Of a stretch of DNA of 64,000 bases, positions 25,672 to 64,000 are shown one piece after another. The notes below the pieces were generated by a model that did no database searches, was not told the origin of the DNA, and saw only the letters and a list, made by a program, of their open reading frames with translations. The DNA is from Escherichia coli (lineage in GTDB: Bacteria; Pseudomonadota; Gammaproteobacteria; Enterobacterales; Enterobacteriaceae), in assembly GCF_046105845.1 (NCBI RefSeq), contig NZ_CP151004.1, one strand, 5' to 3'. The translations under genes were made by a program, and so were the position numbers. Every line of letters begins with the position of its first letter. Position 1 is the first letter of the stretch.

Positions 25672-26919
25672 ATGGCACTGAATATTCCATTCAGAAATGC
25701 GTACTATCGTTTTGCATCCAGTTACTCATTTCTCTTTTTTATTTCCTGGTCGCTGTGGTGGTCGTTATACGCTATTTGGCTGAAAGGACATCTAGGATTA
25801 ACAGGGACTGAATTAGGTACACTTTATTCGGTCAACCAGTTTACCAGCATTCTATTTATGATGTTCTACGGCATCGTTCAGGATAAACTCGGTCTGAAGA
25901 AACCGCTCATCTGGTGTATGAGTTTCATTCTGGTCTTGACCGGACCGTTTATGATTTACGTTTATGAACCGTTACTGCAAAGCAATTTTTCTGTAGGTCT
26001 AATTCTGGGGGCGCTCTTTTTTGGCCTGGGGTATCTGGCGGGATGCGGTTTGCTTGACAGCTTCACTGAAAAAATGGCGCGAAATTTTCATTTCGAATAT
26101 GGAACAGCGCGCGCCTGGGGATCTTTTGGCTATGCTATTGGCGCGTTCTTTGCCGGTATATTTTTTAGTATCAGTCCCCATATCAACTTCTGGTTGGTCT
26201 CGCTATTTGGCGCTGTATTTATGATGATCAACATGCGTTTTAAAGATAAGGATCACCAGTGCATAGCGGCGGATGCGGGAGGGGTAAAAAAAGAGGATTT
26301 TATCGCAGTTTTCAAGGATCGAAACTTCTGGGTTTTTGTCATATTTATTGTGGGGACGTGGTCTTTCTATAACATTTTTGATCAACAACTCTTTCCTGTC
26401 TTTTATGCAGGTTTATTCGAATCACACGATGTAGGAACGCGCCTGTATGGTTATCTCAACTCATTCCAGGTGGTACTCGAAGCGCTGTGCATGGCGATTA
26501 TTCCTTTCTTTGTGAATCGGGTAGGGCCAAAAAATGCATTACTTATCGGTGTTGTGATTATGGCGTTGCGTATCCTTTCCTGCGCGCTGTTCGTTAACCC
26601 CTGGATTATTTCATTAGTGAAGCTGTTACATGCCATTGAGGTTCCACTTTGTGTCATATCCGTCTTCAAATACAGCGTGGCAAACTTTGATAAGCGCCTG
26701 TCGTCGACGATCTTTCTGATTGGTTTTCAAATTGCCAGTTCGCTTGGGATTGTGCTGCTTTCAACGCCGACTGGGATACTCTTTGACCACGCAGGCTACC
26801 AGACAGTTTTCTTCGCAATTTCGGGTATTGTCTGCCTGATGTTGCTATTTGGCATTTTCTTCTTGAGTAAAAAACGCGAGCAAATAGTTATGGAAACGCC
26901 TGTACCTTCAGCAATATAG
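25672..26919 (+). CDS. cscB: sucrose:H+ symporter (MFS, LacY family)
   Basis: 415-aa 12-TM ORF, LacY-like. Confidence 0.9.
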   Translation: MALNIPFRNAYYRFASSYSFLFFISWSLWWSLYAIWLKGHLGLTGTELGTLYSVNQFTSILFMMFYGIVQDKLGLKKPLIWCMSFILVLTGPFMIYVYEPLLQSNFSVGLILGALFFGLGYLAGCGLLDSFTEKMARNFHFEYGTARAWGSFGYAIGAFFAGIFFSISPHINFWLVSLFGAVFMMINMRFKDKDHQCIAADAGGVKKEDFIAVFKDRNFWVFVIFIVGTWSFYNIFDQQLFPVFYAGLFESHDVGTRLYGYLNSFQVVLEALCMAIIPFFVNRVGPKNALLIGVVIMALRILSCALFVNPWIISLVKLLHAIEVPLCVISVFKYSVANFDKRLSSTIFLIGFQIASSLGIVLLSTPTGILFDHAGYQTVFFAISGIVCLMLLFGIFFLSKKREQIVMETPVPSAI

Positions 26920-27360
26920 ACGTAAACTTTTTCCGGTTGTTGTCGATATCTCCATATCCCTCAACCGGAAAATAGTAATACAAAAATGCTTAGCCCAACT
27001 AATAATCACCTAATCCAAACGCCTCATTCATGTTCTGGTACAGTCGCTCAAATGTACTCCGGATACGCGGTTCGCTGATTTCCAGGACATTGTCGTCATT
27101 CAGCGACCTGTCCCGAGTATCACGGGCCTGCGAATTCATCAAGGAATGCATTGCAGAGTGAAGTATCGAGTCACGCCATATTTCGCTATCAGGATTCTGT
27201 ATGATGGTTACATCGCCCGGCCCAGGGCTGTTTAGTCATCAGCGCTTTCTGACAGTGCTGAGATTTCAACCTGTTGCAGTAAAAATGAGTAGATATAGGG
27301 CAAGTGTGCTGCCAAACCCATCTTTTACGGGGTGAAGGTAGATATTGTTAGAAGGGTATC

Positions 27361-27375
27361 TGGTGTCCCCTGCAG
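27361..27375 (-). repeat. attR core: duplicated 3' end of tRNA-Arg (argW)
   Basis: TGGTGTCCCCTGCAG is the reverse complement of the argW acceptor 3' end CTGCAGGGGACACCA (recalled tRNA sequence). Confidence 0.7.
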
Positions 27376-27448
27376 ACATCTACTTGACGCGGCAGGGGAT
27401 TGATTGGAATGGTGTTTTTTGGATGTGAGAAATATTTTACCCGCTATT

Positions 27449-27649
27449 TTACCCATTGGCGCGGCTTAAGAGCTTATTTTTGAATTCACAATGGTCACGA
27501 TATAACCATCTTGCTCGCCCGTGGATAACTTTAGCTTTTGGCAGGTCGCCGGACTTAATCCGGTCATAGATGAAGGTTTTACCGAAGCCAGTATCGGCCA
27601 TGATGAATTTCAAATCAACCAGTGAATCAGGTTGTAGTTCGTGTTGCAT
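27449..27649 (-). CDS. torI: excisionase / recombination directionality factor (TorI family, winged helix)
   Basis: 66-aa product MQHELQPDSLVDLKFIMADTGFGKTFIYDRIKSGDLPKAKVIHGRARWLYRDHCEFKNKLLSRANG matches recalled K-12 KplE1 TorI; the ORF track gives a longer 27449..27664 version. Confidence 0.85.
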   Translation of the reverse strand: MQHELQPDSLVDLKFIMADTGFGKTFIYDRIKSGDLPKAKVIHGRARWLYRDHCEFKNKLLSRANG

Positions 27650-27706
27650 GAGTGCTATCTCCAAATAGGGAATCGAACCTGCAAATCAGGCAATAAAAAA
27701 CCGCCA

Positions 27707-27874
27707 TCAGGCGGCTTGATGTTCTTTCAGTTCTTCAATTCGAATATTGGTTACGTCTGCATGTGCTATCTGCGCCCATATCATCCAGTGGTCATAGCAG
27801 TCGTTGATGTTCTCTGCTTCGATAACTCTGTTGAATGGTTCTCCATTCCATTCACCTGTGACTCGGAAGTGCAT
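27707..27874 (-). CDS. small hypothetical prophage protein (55 aa)
   Basis: ORF MHFRVTGEWNGEPFNRVIEAENINDCYDHWMIWAQIAHADVTNIRIEELKEHQAA, below the ORF-track cut-off; followed on the minus strand by hairpin CCGCC-TGAT-GGCGG plus T-run. Confidence 0.4.
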   Translation of the reverse strand: MHFRVTGEWNGEPFNRVIEAENINDCYDHWMIWAQIAHADVTNIRIEELKEHQAA

Positions 27875-27962
27875 TTATCATCTCCATAAAACAAAACCCT
27901 CCGTAGCGAGTTCAGATAAAAGAAATCCCCGCGAATGCGAGGATTGTTATGTAATATTTGGT

Positions 27963-28244
27963 TTAATCATCTATATGTTTTGTACAGAGAGGGCAAGTAT
28001 CGTTTCCACCGTACTCGTGATAATAATTTTGCACGGTAGCAGTCATTTCTCGCACATTGCAGAATGGGGATTTGTCTTCATTAGACTTATAAACCTTCAT
28101 GGAATATTTGTATGCCGACTCTATATCTATACCTTCATCTACATAAACACCTTCGTGATGTCTGCATGGAGACAAGACACCGGATCTGCACAACATTGAT
28201 AACGCCCAATCTTTTTGCTCAGACTCTAACTCATTGATACTCAT
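27963..28244 (-). CDS. hypothetical Cys-rich protein (93 aa)
   Basis: ORF with AAGGAG RBS 8 nt upstream; five Cys including a CPLC pair; AT-rich; about 200 bp untranslated upstream. Confidence 0.5.
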   Translation of the reverse strand: MSINELESEQKDWALSMLCRSGVLSPCRHHEGVYVDEGIDIESAYKYSMKVYKSNEDKSPFCNVREMTATVQNYYHEYGGNDTCPLCTKHIDD

Positions 28245-28446
28245 TTATAAACTCCTTGCAATGTATGTCGTTTCAGCTAAACGGTATCAGCAATGTTTAT
28301 GTAAAGAAACAGTAAGATAATACTCAACCCGATGTTTGAGTACGGTCATCATCTGACACTACAGACTCTGGCATCGCTGTGAAGACGACGCGAAATTCAG
28401 CATTTTCACAAGCGTTATTTTTTACAAACCCGTATTCCTGCTCATA

Positions 28447-29070
28447 TCACTCTCCTTTGATGCGAATACCAGCAGTGCGCTCGGCTTCACTTTGTTCCCA
28501 AAACCACTTGTGAAGCTCCATAAGCTTTTCGTCAATCGGTGCATATTTGCGATTAAAGTAGGCCTGAGCATCTTTCTCAGATTCGTCCGGCAATTCGCCT
28601 GGGCCAAACAGTGTGTTATAAATCCATGCCAGTCCGCTTTTAGCGTCGCCAGTTGCCTGCCATTCGATAATCGCAGCCTGCATGACCAGAATGTTTTTCC
28701 CGATTAACAGGTCCAGTTCTTTGAACCGGTTGCGGATGTATGCATTCTCGCTTTGTAATTTTGCGTTGCGCTTCTCTGCGGCTTCCAGCTCAACACGCAG
28801 TTTCCCTACCGCTAGCGCAATTTCCTCGTTCTCCTGGTCGCGGCGTTTGATGTATTGCTGGTTTCTTTCCCGTTCATCCAGTAGTGCCAGCACGGTTTCT
28901 GGTCCGGCCAGAAATTTGAAGGCGTTGAGCGCATCAATATCCACACCGTAATCTTTAAGTTCCTGTTCACTTAACAAATCATCATCAGCTGGCAACATTA
29001 ACAGGCGTTCCATTGCTGGAATTGCACGTTCCGCCACCTCACGCAGTGCCTGGTAATTAATTTCGCTCAC
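28447..29070 (-). CDS. hypothetical prophage early protein, Ea22-like coiled-coil
   Basis: 207-aa ORF in the PL-distal region; central coiled-coil (ALAVGKLRVELEAAEKRNAKLQSEN); family assignment is by resemblance only. Confidence 0.5.
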   Translation of the reverse strand: MSEINYQALREVAERAIPAMERLLMLPADDDLLSEQELKDYGVDIDALNAFKFLAGPETVLALLDERERNQQYIKRRDQENEEIALAVGKLRVELEAAEKRNAKLQSENAYIRNRFKELDLLIGKNILVMQAAIIEWQATGDAKSGLAWIYNTLFGPGELPDESEKDAQAYFNRKYAPIDEKLMELHKWFWEQSEAERTAGIRIKGE

Positions 29071-29516
29071 TGGTTGCCTCCTTTGCGAAGCTGGGCAGCA
29101 AAGTCACGGATAGTGTCATCAAGGTCTGGGCACAACAGATGGTCAGCAAACATCTCTACCCCCTGCGCCCGTACTTCAGCCAGGAAAGCATCGGTGGTTG
29201 GGGTTTCAGTAACATCATCTTCCCATTCGCCAAACTCCTCACGACAAAAGTCATTAAATTCCTTCTCAGATTGCTTAAGCGAGGTATTTTCTGCAGCCAT
29301 CTTCGCGCATTTAGCCTCAAGGTTATCAATCGTGATTCCAGCAGAACGACACTCCCGCAACGCCGTTTCCAGTTTTGATTCAAGCTCACCGAACTTACGC
29401 ACCAGATATTCAGCGTTTGTTTCGTTAACCTTTAAATCTCGTGGAAAGCATTTACCTTTCAGAAAACCATCCATCTCAATTAGTGACATTAGTTTCATTT
29501 CTTCCCACTCCGCCAC
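29067..29516 (-). CDS. hypothetical prophage early protein (Ea22-like N-terminal type)
   Basis: 149-aa ORF overlapping the next gene by 4 bp (ATGA). Confidence 0.5.
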
Positions 29517-29655
29517 ATAGCATTCAGATATTTGTTGTCATTAACAGAACCGAAACTATTTCTCTTAAGTAATTCCTCTCTCGATGGCATTGGCTTTACG
29601 CGTTGGCGAATAATCATTTCTGCCGGAAGAATGCCGGGATTGTATGCAAGTCCTC

Positions 29656-29946
29656 TCATGATTTACTCTCCACGAACTGGTCAACAGCCATGCTAAGTGA
29701 CACACCTAAAGTCTCGATATGTTGCTGAATATCCTGTAGCGTCTGCGCCTGAGATAACAGGATTTCACGGTTGCATAACTCTTTAGCCAGATGCTCAAAC
29801 TTGCTGTAATAACCGATACGACTTAGTGTTTCTTTGCCTGCATTCTCGCCTTCTTTGATAATTCCTCTTTCGCTAAGAATCAGATCGTGTTTGGTTCCGG
29901 TAATAACGTATTTTCCGAGGTCGATGTTTAGCTTCATTGTTTTCAT
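29656..29946 (-). CDS. hypothetical early protein (96 aa), in the position of P22 abc genes
   Basis: ORF track 29656..30099; start placed at the internal ATG with GAGGAA RBS ([17 protein letters not shown]...); functional assignment is by synteny with erf only. Confidence 0.45.
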
Positions 29947-29956
29947 TGTTAATTCC

Positions 29957-30253
29957 TCAGTCATTACTGATAGCGCCATAGCGTGAGCGGTAATTACGCA
30001 GGCGCGGGTCGATATATTCAGGGAAGTGGGTATATGTGGCTTTGCGGAATGGTCGGATTGATGTCTGGTAAATTCGCTCGCGTTCTTCTTTCTCTGCAAG
30101 CCATATACAATGGCGAAATTCCTTTTCCTCTTTCGTTTCCTGCGGTAGCGACATTATCCGGTCGTAGTTTTTCCTGAATTTATCCAGCACCTCCGATACG
30201 GAATTGCCGGAACAGCGGCGCGGGTCATCCGCACCATACAGAGGCGCTGGCAT
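29957..30253 (-). CDS. hypothetical early protein (98 aa), in the position of P22 abc genes
   Basis: ORF in the PL operon downstream of erf. Confidence 0.45.
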   Translation of the reverse strand: MPAPLYGADDPRRCSGNSVSEVLDKFRKNYDRIMSLPQETKEEKEFRHCIWLAEKEERERIYQTSIRPFRKATYTHFPEYIDPRLRNYRSRYGAISND

Positions 30254-30276
30254 AATGGAATCCTTATGTTGCTAAT

Positions 30277-30660
30277 TTAGAAGGGAATTGAATCGTCGTA
30301 TTCAGGATGATTTTGATGATTGCTACTTTGTTGCTGTTGGCTGTTTCCTGAAGTTGCAAATCCAATCTTTGCATTCAGTAATTCAAGAGTGATTGATTGA
30401 CCATTTTGCCCCTGATAAACATCAACCCTGATGTTTTCTCCGGTAATTTCTACAATGCCACCTTCAACAAGAACACTACGGTAGTAATCCGCTTGCGCTC
30501 CCGGCTTGGCAAATACAACGGCGCTGTAGTTTGTCCATTCTTTCTTTTTTGTCTGGCGATCGTAATACTGAACGCCAGCACGGATGTTGAATCCGATATT
30601 TTCCCCGGCCTGAAACTCTCTTGCGGGCTTGTTTAGTCTTACAGTAATCGAATGTGCCAT
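30277..30660 (-). CDS. hypothetical early protein (127 aa), possibly OB-fold-like
   Basis: Start ATG overlaps the erf stop (TAATG coupling); product MAHSITVRLNKPAREFQAGENIGFNIRAGVQYYDRQTKKKEW... Confidence 0.5.
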   Translation of the reverse strand: MAHSITVRLNKPAREFQAGENIGFNIRAGVQYYDRQTKKKEWTNYSAVVFAKPGAQADYYRSVLVEGGIVEITGENIRVDVYQGQNGQSITLELLNAKIGFATSGNSQQQQSSNHQNHPEYDDSIPF

Positions 30661-31265
30661 TAAGCAGCCGCTCCTTCTAATTCGTCTCGTCTGATGTTGT
30701 AAACGTCCTGCGCTTTGTGCTGCTCCGGTGTGCCTTCGAGCATCTTCCACGCTTTGGCGAACGCCTGTTTAAGCTCTTCTACGGTGTTTTTCTGCAATGC
30801 TGCGTCAGTGAATGCTTTTAGAACCTGTTCAGATGTAGGTGATGGTTTTGATTGCTTTGCTGCTGCGTTCTGCTGATGTTTATGCTCGTCGGTATCTGCA
30901 TCTTTCGCATCATCAATGCCGAACAAACCATTGAGGCAATACTTGCGTGCATAAGAGCTTGTAGCTCCAGTAACTTGTGCAGAATCCATTCCTTTCTTGC
31001 TTTCTTCCTCTCGTGCAAGGGCGGTTGCTGTATGACTGTTTTCGCCATCAGTAATAGTTGCTGTTGCTTTCACGTAATACCGATCACCAATCAACACAAC
31101 TTCATCGCTGATTGATAAAAACAGGCCATTCAGTAACGGCTTAACGCCTTCAAGAATGTCTTCGCAGCTTCTGTATTTATATTTACCGAATGAGTTGTAC
31201 TGATTCTTTGGCGCGTTCAGATTCTCCTGAATGGCTGCCAGTCTTGCGTAAAATTCTTTGCTCAT
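30660..31265 (-). CDS. erf: ssDNA-annealing recombinase (Erf family)
   Basis: Product MSKEFYARLAAIQENLNAPKNQYNSFGKYKYRSCEDILEGVKPLL... closely matches recalled P22 Erf; ORF track 30660..31295 with an upstream alternative start. Confidence 0.85.
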   Translation of the reverse strand: MSKEFYARLAAIQENLNAPKNQYNSFGKYKYRSCEDILEGVKPLLNGLFLSISDEVVLIGDRYYVKATATITDGENSHTATALAREEESKKGMDSAQVTGATSSYARKYCLNGLFGIDDAKDADTDEHKHQQNAAAKQSKPSPTSEQVLKAFTDAALQKNTVEELKQAFAKAWKMLEGTPEQHKAQDVYNIRRDELEGAAA

Positions 31266-31366
31266 ATGTTTGTTCTCAGAATGGACACGGCCCAAGGAAA
31301 TAACGCTGATTTAATACTTCGACTCGGGACAAATTAAGGCATACCCGCATTCCTTCGCGGTCACCA

Positions 31367-31525
31367 TTATGGCGATACCAGAGAGCTTTCTGCGTGTACA
31401 TGCGTCTCTGTAACTTGCTCTCCTTCACTGTGGTTGCAAGTGACATGAATATCTCCTTCGTTACCGATTAAATCTTTCATCTGACGAATGAATTCTTCGT
31501 CTGACCAGTTATCTGTAAAACTCAT
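31367..31525 (-). CDS. small protein in the position of P22 arf (52 aa)
   Basis: ORF MSFTDNWSDEEFIRQMKDLIGNEGDIHVTCNHSEG... whose ATG overlaps the kil stop (ATGA); assignment by synteny. Confidence 0.35.
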   Translation of the reverse strand: MSFTDNWSDEEFIRQMKDLIGNEGDIHVTCNHSEGEQVTETHVHAESSLVSP

Positions 31526-31674
31526 TTCCTGCGATACCACGGAAGGTTGATAGCTGATTTCATCGCTTTATTTGCTTCAAGCCACATTTTGGAATCACCA
31601 ATAAATCTGGCTATTACTGCTTTGTTTTGTGCCGCACGAAGCATCTGGTGATTAATGGCTATTTCATTTCGCAT
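31522..31674 (-). CDS. kil: Kil-like host cell-division inhibitor (50 aa)
   Basis: ORF MRNEIAINHQMLRAAQNKAVIARFIGDSKMWLEANKAMKSAINLPWYRRK; the FIGD-KM...EA...A-K pattern resembles recalled lambda Kil; lies in the c3-kil-erf order. Confidence 0.45.
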   Translation of the reverse strand: MRNEIAINHQMLRAAQNKAVIARFIGDSKMWLEANKAMKSAINLPWYRRK

Positions 31675-31793
31675 AACGCCTCCAGTTGTTTCTTTGCTGC
31701 TCTGATTAATTGTTTAACTCGGCGTGATAATTCAGATTCGTGCGGGTAGAAAGCGGACATGACGCCGCTACCCGCGAGCTGAAAGTGCATCAT
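31659..31793 (-). CDS. CIII-like protease inhibitor (P22 c3 position)
   Basis: Short ORF MMHFQLAGSGVMSAFYPHESELSRRVKQLIRAAKKQLEALCEMK, resembling the lambda CIII N-terminus (MQYAIAGWPVAGCPSESLLERI...); its 3' end overlaps the kil start. Confidence 0.5.
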   Translation of the reverse strand: MMHFQLAGSGVMSAFYPHESELSRRVKQLIRAAKKQLEALCEMK

Positions 31794-32019
31794 GGGTAAC
31801 TCCTTATATTTGATTGCATAACGAAAACGCCTCAAGTGAAGCGTTATTGGTATGCATATAAAAAAGCCCTCACACTGGAGGGCAAAGAAGATTTCCAATA
31901 ATCAGAACAAGTCGTCTCCTGTTTAGTTACGAGCGACATTGCTCCGTGTATTCACTCGTTGTAATGAATACACAGTGCAGTGTTTATTCTGTTGTTTATG
32001 CCAAAAATAAAGTCCACCG

Positions 32020-32220
32020 TCAGGCAGCCTTGTTATTCTGTTCACCAAGTTCTCTGGCAATCATTGCCGTCGTTCGTATTGCCCATTTATCGACATATTT
32101 CCCATTCTCCATTACAGGAAACATTTCTTCAGGCTTAACCATGCATTCCGATTGCAGCTTGCATCCATTGCATCGCTTGAATTGTCCACACCATTGATTT
32201 TTATCAATAGTCGTAGTCAT
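32020..32220 (-). CDS. ral: restriction alleviation protein Ral
   Basis: 66-aa ORF MTTTIDKNQWCGQFKRCNGCKLQSECMVKPEEMF... matches recalled lambda Ral. Confidence 0.7.
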   Translation of the reverse strand: MTTTIDKNQWCGQFKRCNGCKLQSECMVKPEEMFPVMENGKYVDKWAIRTTAMIARELGEQNNKAA

Positions 32221-63698: not shown

Positions 63699-64000
63699 TT
63701 ACTCAGCCTTCCCATCAAGCCAGTCCGCCCACCACTGCATCATTTCTCTGCGCTTATCGAGATACTGAGCATGGTTGTAAATCCCGCGCACAGATCCGCC
63801 GTTGGCATGTGCCAGTTGCACTTCAATAGCATCAGCAGGCCATTCGTGCTCGTTCATAATCGTGCTGAATTCATGCCTGAATCCGTGACCGCTTTCCAGA
63901 CCTTCATAGCCGATTTGTTTGATCACAAGCAATACCGCGTTCTCGCAGATTGGCTTCTTCTTATCGTTACGCCCGGAAAAAACAAACTCTGATACTGGTT
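63699..64000 (-). CDS. intS: tyrosine integrase, C-terminal catalytic part (5' end outside window)
   Basis: Frame is open to the window edge; C-terminal catalytic motifs HGFRHEF and GIYNHAQY; at the prophage end opposite torI. Confidence 0.8.
   Translation of the reverse strand, partial: PVSEFVFSGRNDKKKPICENAVLLVIKQIGYEGLESGHGFRHEFSTIMNEHEWPADAIEVQLAHANGGSVRGIYNHAQYLDKRREMMQWWADWLDGKAE

Follow-up and report, generated by a model that had tools for sequence, protein, structure and literature searches.

The segment at 27707–28446 of the window, by which we mean the whole 64,000-nucleotide stretch of Escherichia coli DNA analyzed in this study, contains two small genes, ea8.5 and orf55. Both are on the minus strand and are located between an ea22-like gene and torI (Table 1). 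Much of what the initial annotation had read from this segment was borne out. The 93-residue ORF contains five cysteines, which are C19, C27, C62, C84, and C87, with the CPLC motif at residues 84–87. It is preceded by a strong ribosome-binding site (RBS) and by about 200 bp without a plausible ORF, in which only a 21-residue ORF and a 7-codon ORF were found. The 55-residue ORF is also followed by a terminator-like hairpin before torI. The segment had in addition been described as AT-rich. Its GC content is lower than that of the window (40.4% versus 45.9%), but the difference is mild, as 11% of 740-bp windows had a GC content equal to or below this value. A strong hairpin between the two genes and a degraded third hairpin were absent from the initial annotation.

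Table 1. Positions of the genes and sequence features identified at the ea8.5–orf55 locus.
Feature	Position	Strand	Evidence
ea22-like (Ead/Ea22-like) gene, 207 aa	28447..29070	minus	Pfam PF13935, E = 1.3e-30, residues 2–109
Non-coding spacer ("leader") 5' of ea8.5, 202 bp	28245..28446	minus	Alignment with lambda
Shine-Dalgarno sequence of ea8.5, AAGGAG, 7 nt 5' of ATG	28252..28257	minus	Sequence reading
ea8.5, 93 aa, acidic, predicted zinc-binding	27963..28244	minus	Lambda identity, PF20735, phrog_6325
Hairpin and T-tract after ea8.5 (lambda t3)	27924..27945	minus	Hairpin scan, PMC4195576 Table 4
Degraded lambda t4 hairpin	27894..27913	minus	Fold energy compared with lambda
RBS of orf55, GGAG, 7 nt upstream of the ORF	27882..27885	minus	Sequence reading
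orf55 (lambdap35), 55 aa, acidic	27707..27874	minus	Lambda identity, phrog_676
Terminator-like hairpin with T-tract, overlapping the stop codon of orf55 (lambda t5)	27698..27717	minus	Hairpin scan
torI, 66 aa, KplE1/HK620-type excisionase	27449..27649	minus	AR_0118 annotation, phrog_66

Operon context and prophage

The gene order on the minus strand is N, ral, cIII, erf, abc2, ea22-like, ea8.5, orf55, and torI. The cI gene is upstream of N on the same strand, and is followed by the divergently oriented cro, cII, O, and P. The ea8.5 and orf55 genes follow N on the same strand at a distance of about 4.3–5.2 kb. Given that cI, N, ral, cIII, erf, and abc2 are all upstream and on the same strand, the locus represents the distal end of a pL operon, in agreement with its initial annotation as PL-distal. 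Similar to the exo-xis genes, ea8.5 is part of the pL operon, is co-oriented with N and has the recombination genes on one side and the excisionase gene on the other. In this operon, a P22-type erf recombinase gene stands in for lambda exo/bet. Moreover, the operon stretch at 29957–32220 (minus strand) includes abc2 (anti-RecBCD; PF11043, E = 4e-62) and ral (antirestriction; PF11058, E = 8e-47).

The early region of the prophage was closest to those of CUS-3 and HK97, and its late region was closest to that of HK620. The left flank of the prophage is the chromosomal csc-dsdA region. The torI gene, which occupies the position of xis in lambda, is annotated as TorI (WP_001163428.1) in the AR_0118 region that is 99.7% identical to the window, and PHROGs assigned it to the excisionase family phrog_66. 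The torI end of the prophage abuts cscB (25672–26919), with a spacer of ~530 bp (26920–27448) in between that should contain the attachment site. No integrase gene adjoining torI was found within the window, which is consistent with the arrangement of HK620/KplE1 prophages, whose int and excisionase genes are at opposite ends. TorI/HK620-type prophages usually integrate at argW, and no tRNA gene was detected across positions 1–64000. Presumably, the integrase end and its tRNA gene lie beyond position 64000.

Identification of ea8.5 and orf55

The sequence at 27681–28432 of the window was 97.9% identical to positions 29091–29843 of phage lambda, an interval that in the lambda RefSeq record holds ea8.5 (lambdap36) and the 55-residue lambdap35 (orf55) between ea22 and xis. 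The 93-residue protein was identical to lambda Ea8.5 (NP_040611) at 92 of 93 positions, with D69A as the sole change. It matched PF20735 (Lambda_ea8_5) over positions 1–90 of the 90-position profile (E = 6.6e-48; 161.7 bits, with a cutoff of 27) and was assigned by PHROGs to phrog_6325. On these alignments, the cysteine-rich gene is a near-identical copy of the lambda early gene ea8.5. As evidence against its reading, the initial annotation had named a clear homolog among known early genes with a defined function. The first part of this description applies, as the protein is 99% identical to the product of a named lambda early gene, but the second part does not, as that product has no defined biochemical function. 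The earlier view of a real accessory gene that is translated and that lies in a leftward early operon at its variable int/xis end stands, and the exo-xis ORFs have been confirmed by ribosome profiling, as related in PMC8614690. The Ea8.5 family is small, as only 55 clusters had E ≤ 1e-3 when 1.84 billion representatives were scanned exhaustively with HMMER. The curated models of NCBIfam gave no match for any of the four proteins searched.

The 55-residue protein was identical to lambda Orf55 (NP_597778) at all 55 positions. It belongs to phrog_676 and had no Pfam family match. Similar to Ea8.5, Orf55 is small and acidic, with a pI of 4.9. Its model (pLDDT 90.6) contained a beta-beta-alpha-beta unit.

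The predicted lambda terminators t3, t4, and t5 that are named in PMC4195576 (Bloch 2014, Table 4) map to 27945–27924, 27913–27894, and 27717–27698, respectively. The t3 hairpin, in which the lambda stem is kept, has a 9-bp stem and a dG of -12.5 kcal/mol, and the t5 hairpin, which is identical to that of lambda, has an 8-bp stem and a dG of -12.4 kcal/mol. The t4 hairpin is weakened by a single C-to-A change, and its dG is -4.8 kcal/mol as compared with -10.5 kcal/mol in lambda; this degraded hairpin was not detected by the hairpin scan. Equating a local hairpin with the mapped lambda tL3 was also considered and dropped, as the literature consulted names tL3 solely as a component of vectors and gives neither its sequence nor its coordinates. 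The tL3 of the pKD46/CRIM vectors is presumably located just downstream of exo, not at the ea8.5–orf55 hairpins.

The identity to lambda sets in within the final ~30 nt of the ea22-like gene (shared ...GGTATTCGCATCAAAGGAGAGTGA end). Lambda identity ends at about 27681, just past the orf55 hairpin, where TorI-type sequence replaces xis. Judged from these boundaries, the lambda ea8.5–orf55 block is a mosaic insert that was recombined into an HK620/CUS-3-like prophage using TorI rather than Xis.

Only the N-terminal ~100 residues of the ea22-like protein aligned with lambda Ea22 (54%). The C-terminal half is unrelated to that of lambda Ea22, and Pfam detected the N-terminal Ead_Ea22 domain only. 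Residues 96–192 matched the PADLOC model PDLC02890 "DpdH" (E = 9e-37, 124 bits, profile positions 13–109 of 127). This match may reflect a real link to Dpd DNA-modification defence or a prophage passenger that was captured in model building. Neither a PDB relative nor relevant literature was found for the C-terminal domain of the ea22-like protein.

Zinc site, fold and charge of Ea8.5

The alignment of 32 full-length relatives (28–98% identity) revealed only four invariant columns, which were C27, H30, C84, and C87. The zinc-ligand pattern C27-X2-H30…C84-X2-C87 is therefore kept family-wide, with the CPLC pair as its second half, and C19 and C62 are lineage-specific cysteines. In addition, Ea8.5 had full-length homology to 2M7A, an NMR structure (E = 2.9e-17), and 2M7B was matched as well. 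The AF2 model of Ea8.5 had a pLDDT of 86.6, and a Foldseek search with this model returned 2M7A (TM 0.65/0.69) and 2M7B (TM 0.59/0.69), both with a probability of 1.00. All other matches of the model in the PDB had E > 2 and a probability of at most 0.15, and no fold relatives were found outside its own family. The hybrid of homeodomain-like helices and a zinc finger, as found in 2M7A and 2M7B, was also present in the AF2 prediction. On the four invariant ligands, the homology to 2M7A and the match of the model to both structures, Ea8.5 is a predicted zinc-binding protein with a CxxH…CxxC site, which agrees with the zinc-binding fold that the initial annotation had proposed to look for by homology and structure prediction. 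This fold has already been published by Kwan et al. (2013), as cited in PMC8614690, in which it is described as a hybrid homeodomain/zinc finger.

The pI of Ea8.5 is 4.93 and its net charge is -7. The median pI and the median net charge of the family were 4.59 and about -9, respectively, and none of the 32 members was basic. The net positive charge of the Ea8.5 helices never went beyond +2, and a basic DNA-contacting surface was found neither in Ea8.5 nor in the 32-member family. The uniform acidity of the Ea8.5 family is a new observation in this analysis, and it speaks for a modulator that binds proteins rather than a factor that binds DNA.

The leader and the promoter question

The leader corresponds to lambda 29656–29846, which is the ea22–ea8.5 spacer, plus an 11-bp insertion. 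It aligned with lambda over 188 bp at 98.9% identity, with two substitutions and the 11-bp insertion, which is beside the stop codon of the ea22-like gene. Several E. coli prophages have this insertion, whereas lambda does not. The insertion makes a 7-codon mini-ORF at 28421–28444 on the minus strand (ATG AGC AGG AAT ACG GGT TTG TAA), which sits behind a GGAG that overlaps the ea22-like stop codon. The 21-residue ORF within the leader is without a Shine-Dalgarno sequence. A conserved small ORF in the leader was rejected, as the 7-codon ORF arises from an insertion that is absent from lambda. An RNA element in the leader was also rejected, as no Rfam match was found there at E ≤ 1 and the minimum free energy of the leader RNA was no better than those of shuffled sequences (z = -0.20). 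At 27599–27726 on the plus strand, a match to Rfam STnc130, a Salmonella sRNA, had a score of 28 bits versus a gathering score of 55 bits (E = 0.25). It lies antisense to the start of torI and the t5 hairpin and is probably due to chance.

The initial annotation considered the ~200-bp spacer to be consistent with a promoter for ea8.5 alone. A consensus scan, which weak or non-sigma-70 promoters may escape, found no sigma-70-like site on either strand of 27300–28700, as compared with a mean of 3.3 in shuffled sequence. The same scan found no promoter upstream of the stand-alone homologs P0140 and P0133. Given that these two homologs are single genes oriented against their neighbors, they must be transcribed on their own, and the blank scan is thus weak evidence in both directions. 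In the literature, the exo-xis genes, including ea8.5, are described as transcribed from pL (PMC8614690, PMC7093339). With this assignment and the lack of a sigma-70-like site in 27300–28700, a promoter of its own is not supported for the 93-residue gene.

Distribution and cassette exchange

Among 50,697 phage records, Ea8.5 and its leader were found in lambda and its close derivatives only, and always together. The Ea8.5–leader pair was identified in 245 of 5,426 complete E. coli genomes, 210 of which had at least 99% identity. The ea8.5 cassette was absent from HK620, CUS-3, and HK97. Lambda-identical ea8.5 was also found in records of Campylobacter phage CJLB-4, Xanthomonas phage vB_XooS_NR08, Ancylomarina sp., and Acinetobacter baumannii, which most likely represent lambda DNA contamination or mislabelled assemblies.

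Locus L004 carries an Ea8.5 allele of the 2M7A type that is ~40% identical and has its own, unrelated 114-bp leader. This allele is directly 5' of an almost lambda-identical t3-t4-orf55-t5-xis block, in which t3-t4-orf55-t5 is >95% conserved. When positions 530–1200 of L004 were compared with positions 27640–28300 of the window, the identity jumped from ~55% to >95% at t3, ~20 nt past the stop codon. Given that the leader and the gene have been replaced together in L004 with the switch at t3, they form one exchangeable unit. As far as these alignments indicate, the leader and ea8.5 thus behave as an exchangeable cassette that is bounded by the 3' end of ea22 and the t3 hairpin.

Distant Ea8.5-family genes were also found in metagenomic phage-like contigs (L007, 4001–4291; L010, 4001–4300), in which they are opposed to the orientation of their neighbors. 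The neighbors of distant lone homologs include genes for HNH endonuclease, RecT/YqaJ, and SocA_Panacea. The swapping of cassettes and the existence of lone distant homologs indicate autonomous expression somewhere in the Ea8.5 family, with separate transcription units in the lineages of these lone genes.

Functional implications

Previous results showed that ea8.5 is non-essential by CRISPRi (PMC10695390), and plaques form without it. Multicopy ea8.5 represses the CII-dependent paQ and, weakly, pI (Los 2008, cited in PMC7093339), and the whole exo-xis region impairs lysogenization and enhances induction (PMC7093339, PMC3824215). The yeast two-hybrid partners of Ea8.5 are itself, Int, Q, Ren, tail-fibre proteins, and host MinE (PMC3224144, PMC8614690), and the authors of the two-hybrid study marked Ea8.5 as promiscuous (at least 10 interactions) and hence as less reliable (PMC3224144). 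Moreover, the orf73-ea22-ea8.5-orf55 interval has been implicated in a block of host replication initiation (PMC9239242, citing Sergueev 2002) and in an early cell-cycle synchrony phenotype (PMC8614690, PMC9239242). The initial annotation had pointed to lysogenic conversion or anti-defence as common roles of genes at this end of lambdoid prophages. For ea8.5, this suggestion found no support: neither Ea8.5 nor Orf55 matched a PADLOC defence-system model at E ≤ 0.01, neither role is reported in the ea8.5 literature, and the published phenotypes concern CII-dependent promoters, lysogenization and induction (PMC3824215, PMC7093339).

The uniform acidity of the Ea8.5 family, its four zinc ligands as the sole invariant residues and the swapping of leader and gene as a unit before the conserved terminator–orf55 block narrow the hypotheses toward a protein-binding modulator. 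We give a probability of about 60% to the reading that ea8.5 is expressed from pL as an N-dependent, delayed-early gene and that its small, acidic and zinc-stabilized product has a protein as its binding partner and shifts the balance between lysis and lysogeny. In the lysogen, ea8.5 and orf55 would be silent, with pL repressed by cI. After induction or infection, N-modified RNA polymerase would read through from pL, as in lambda, from which such N-dependent readthrough is extrapolated to this prophage, and the two proteins would be delayed-early products. Unmodified transcription would end at the hairpins that follow ea8.5 and orf55, and these hairpins would also stabilize the mRNAs at their 3' ends. 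As a zinc-stabilized modulator that binds proteins and not DNA, Ea8.5 would dampen the output of CII-dependent promoters and so tune the lysis-lysogeny decision, with lytic growth possible without it. Orf55 would be a second small acidic binder. The promoter effects behind this proposed role of Ea8.5 come from multicopy plasmids.

Instead of acting on CII-dependent phage promoters, Ea8.5, Orf55 or both might bind and neutralize a protein of the host, for example MinE, RNA polymerase, a defence protein or a factor of the cell cycle or of replication initiation. Both proteins are small and acidic (pI 4.9), the two-hybrid match to MinE and the cell-cycle synchrony phenotype (PMC8614690, PMC9239242) would fit a host target, ral and abc2 are in the same operon, and the 40%-identical alleles in a conserved frame are what an arms race would give. 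However, lambdoid mosaics commonly swap alleles whatever their function, the fold of Ea8.5 has no relatives outside its own family and there is no experimental anti-defence phenotype. We regard a host-directed role as rather unlikely. It appears improbable that ea8.5 is an autonomous moron, of which the ~200-bp leader would contain a weak or unconventional promoter and which would be expressed from the repressed prophage and alter the phenotype of the host. The order of leader, gene and terminator and the inheritance and exchange of leader and gene as a unit are compatible with such a moron. The distant homologs P0140 and P0133, which as single genes opposed to their neighbors need promoters of their own, point in the same direction, as do the mRNA levels of ea22 and ea8.5, which differ in behavior from those of the upstream exo-xis genes (PMC7093339, PMC4195576). 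On the other side, ea8.5 has the orientation of the entire pL operon and is at its 3' side, the literature gives transcription from pL (PMC8614690) and the promoter scan, which is weakly informative, found zero sites in 27300–28700 when 3.3 were expected by chance.

Quite improbable is also an autonomous and exchangeable leader–ea8.5 cassette with an unconventional promoter, whose acidic zinc protein would inhibit a protein of the host or of a rival phage and thus serve anti-defence or host takeover. If this were true, the 40%-identical alleles in a >95%-conserved frame would reflect an arms race with the target. The hybrid homeodomain/zinc finger fold (Kwan 2013, cited in PMC8614690) and the reduced activities of paQ and pI in the presence of multicopy ea8.5 (PMC7093339) could also be explained by a sequence-specific transcription factor that would bind operators of the phage or of the host through its zinc finger and its homeodomain-like helices. 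Such a factor is most unlikely given the acidity of the family (median pI 4.59, charge of about -9, 0/32 basic), helices that reach at most +2 and a structural search of the PDB in which no DNA-bound homeodomain or zinc finger was matched.

Comparison with known systems

Similar to the lambdoid morons, such as lom and bor of lambda and gp15 of HK97, ea8.5 is not needed for lytic growth and belongs to a discrete cassette, made up of a spacer, the gene and a terminator, that has sharp mosaic boundaries and is swapped as a unit. The terminator is the t3 hairpin, and the exchange is evident from the replacement of the unit in L004 and its absence from HK620, CUS-3, and HK97. Different from the morons, however, the ea8.5 cassette has no recognizable promoter, is co-oriented within an early operon and is reported to be pL-dependent. 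Thus, the autonomous expression from a prophage that defines morons was not found for ea8.5.

ECO111_1119 of an O111 prophage (PDB 2M7A) belongs to the same family as Ea8.5, is of the same length, has the same zinc ligands and occupies the same slot before t3-t4-orf55-t5-xis (L004). The two proteins are only ~40% identical. Moreover, the 114-bp leader of ECO111_1119 is unrelated, and its upstream neighbor is a DUF551 gene but not ea22.

The closest likeness is to lambda itself. The ea8.5 gene of this study and that of lambda share their length, RBS, upstream spacer of ~190 bp, downstream hairpins, orf55, zinc ligands and fold, and in both cases ea8.5 holds the penultimate place in the pL operon, ahead of the excisionase gene. 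Their Orf55 proteins are 100% identical, with the RBS and terminator of orf55 also alike. Different from lambda, the locus of this study has the D69A substitution, 11 extra bp inserted at the far end of the leader and a weakened second tandem hairpin. It is also preceded by a variant of Ea22 whose C-terminal domain differs, followed by TorI instead of Xis/Int, and located in an HK620/CUS-3-like (P22-type) phage. The ea8.5–orf55 module is already known from its names in GenBank, Pfam, and PHROGs, from the solved structures of homologs and from the exo-xis literature. What is new is its mosaic context, in which a lambda module is part of a P22/HK620-type prophage with a TorI excisionase.
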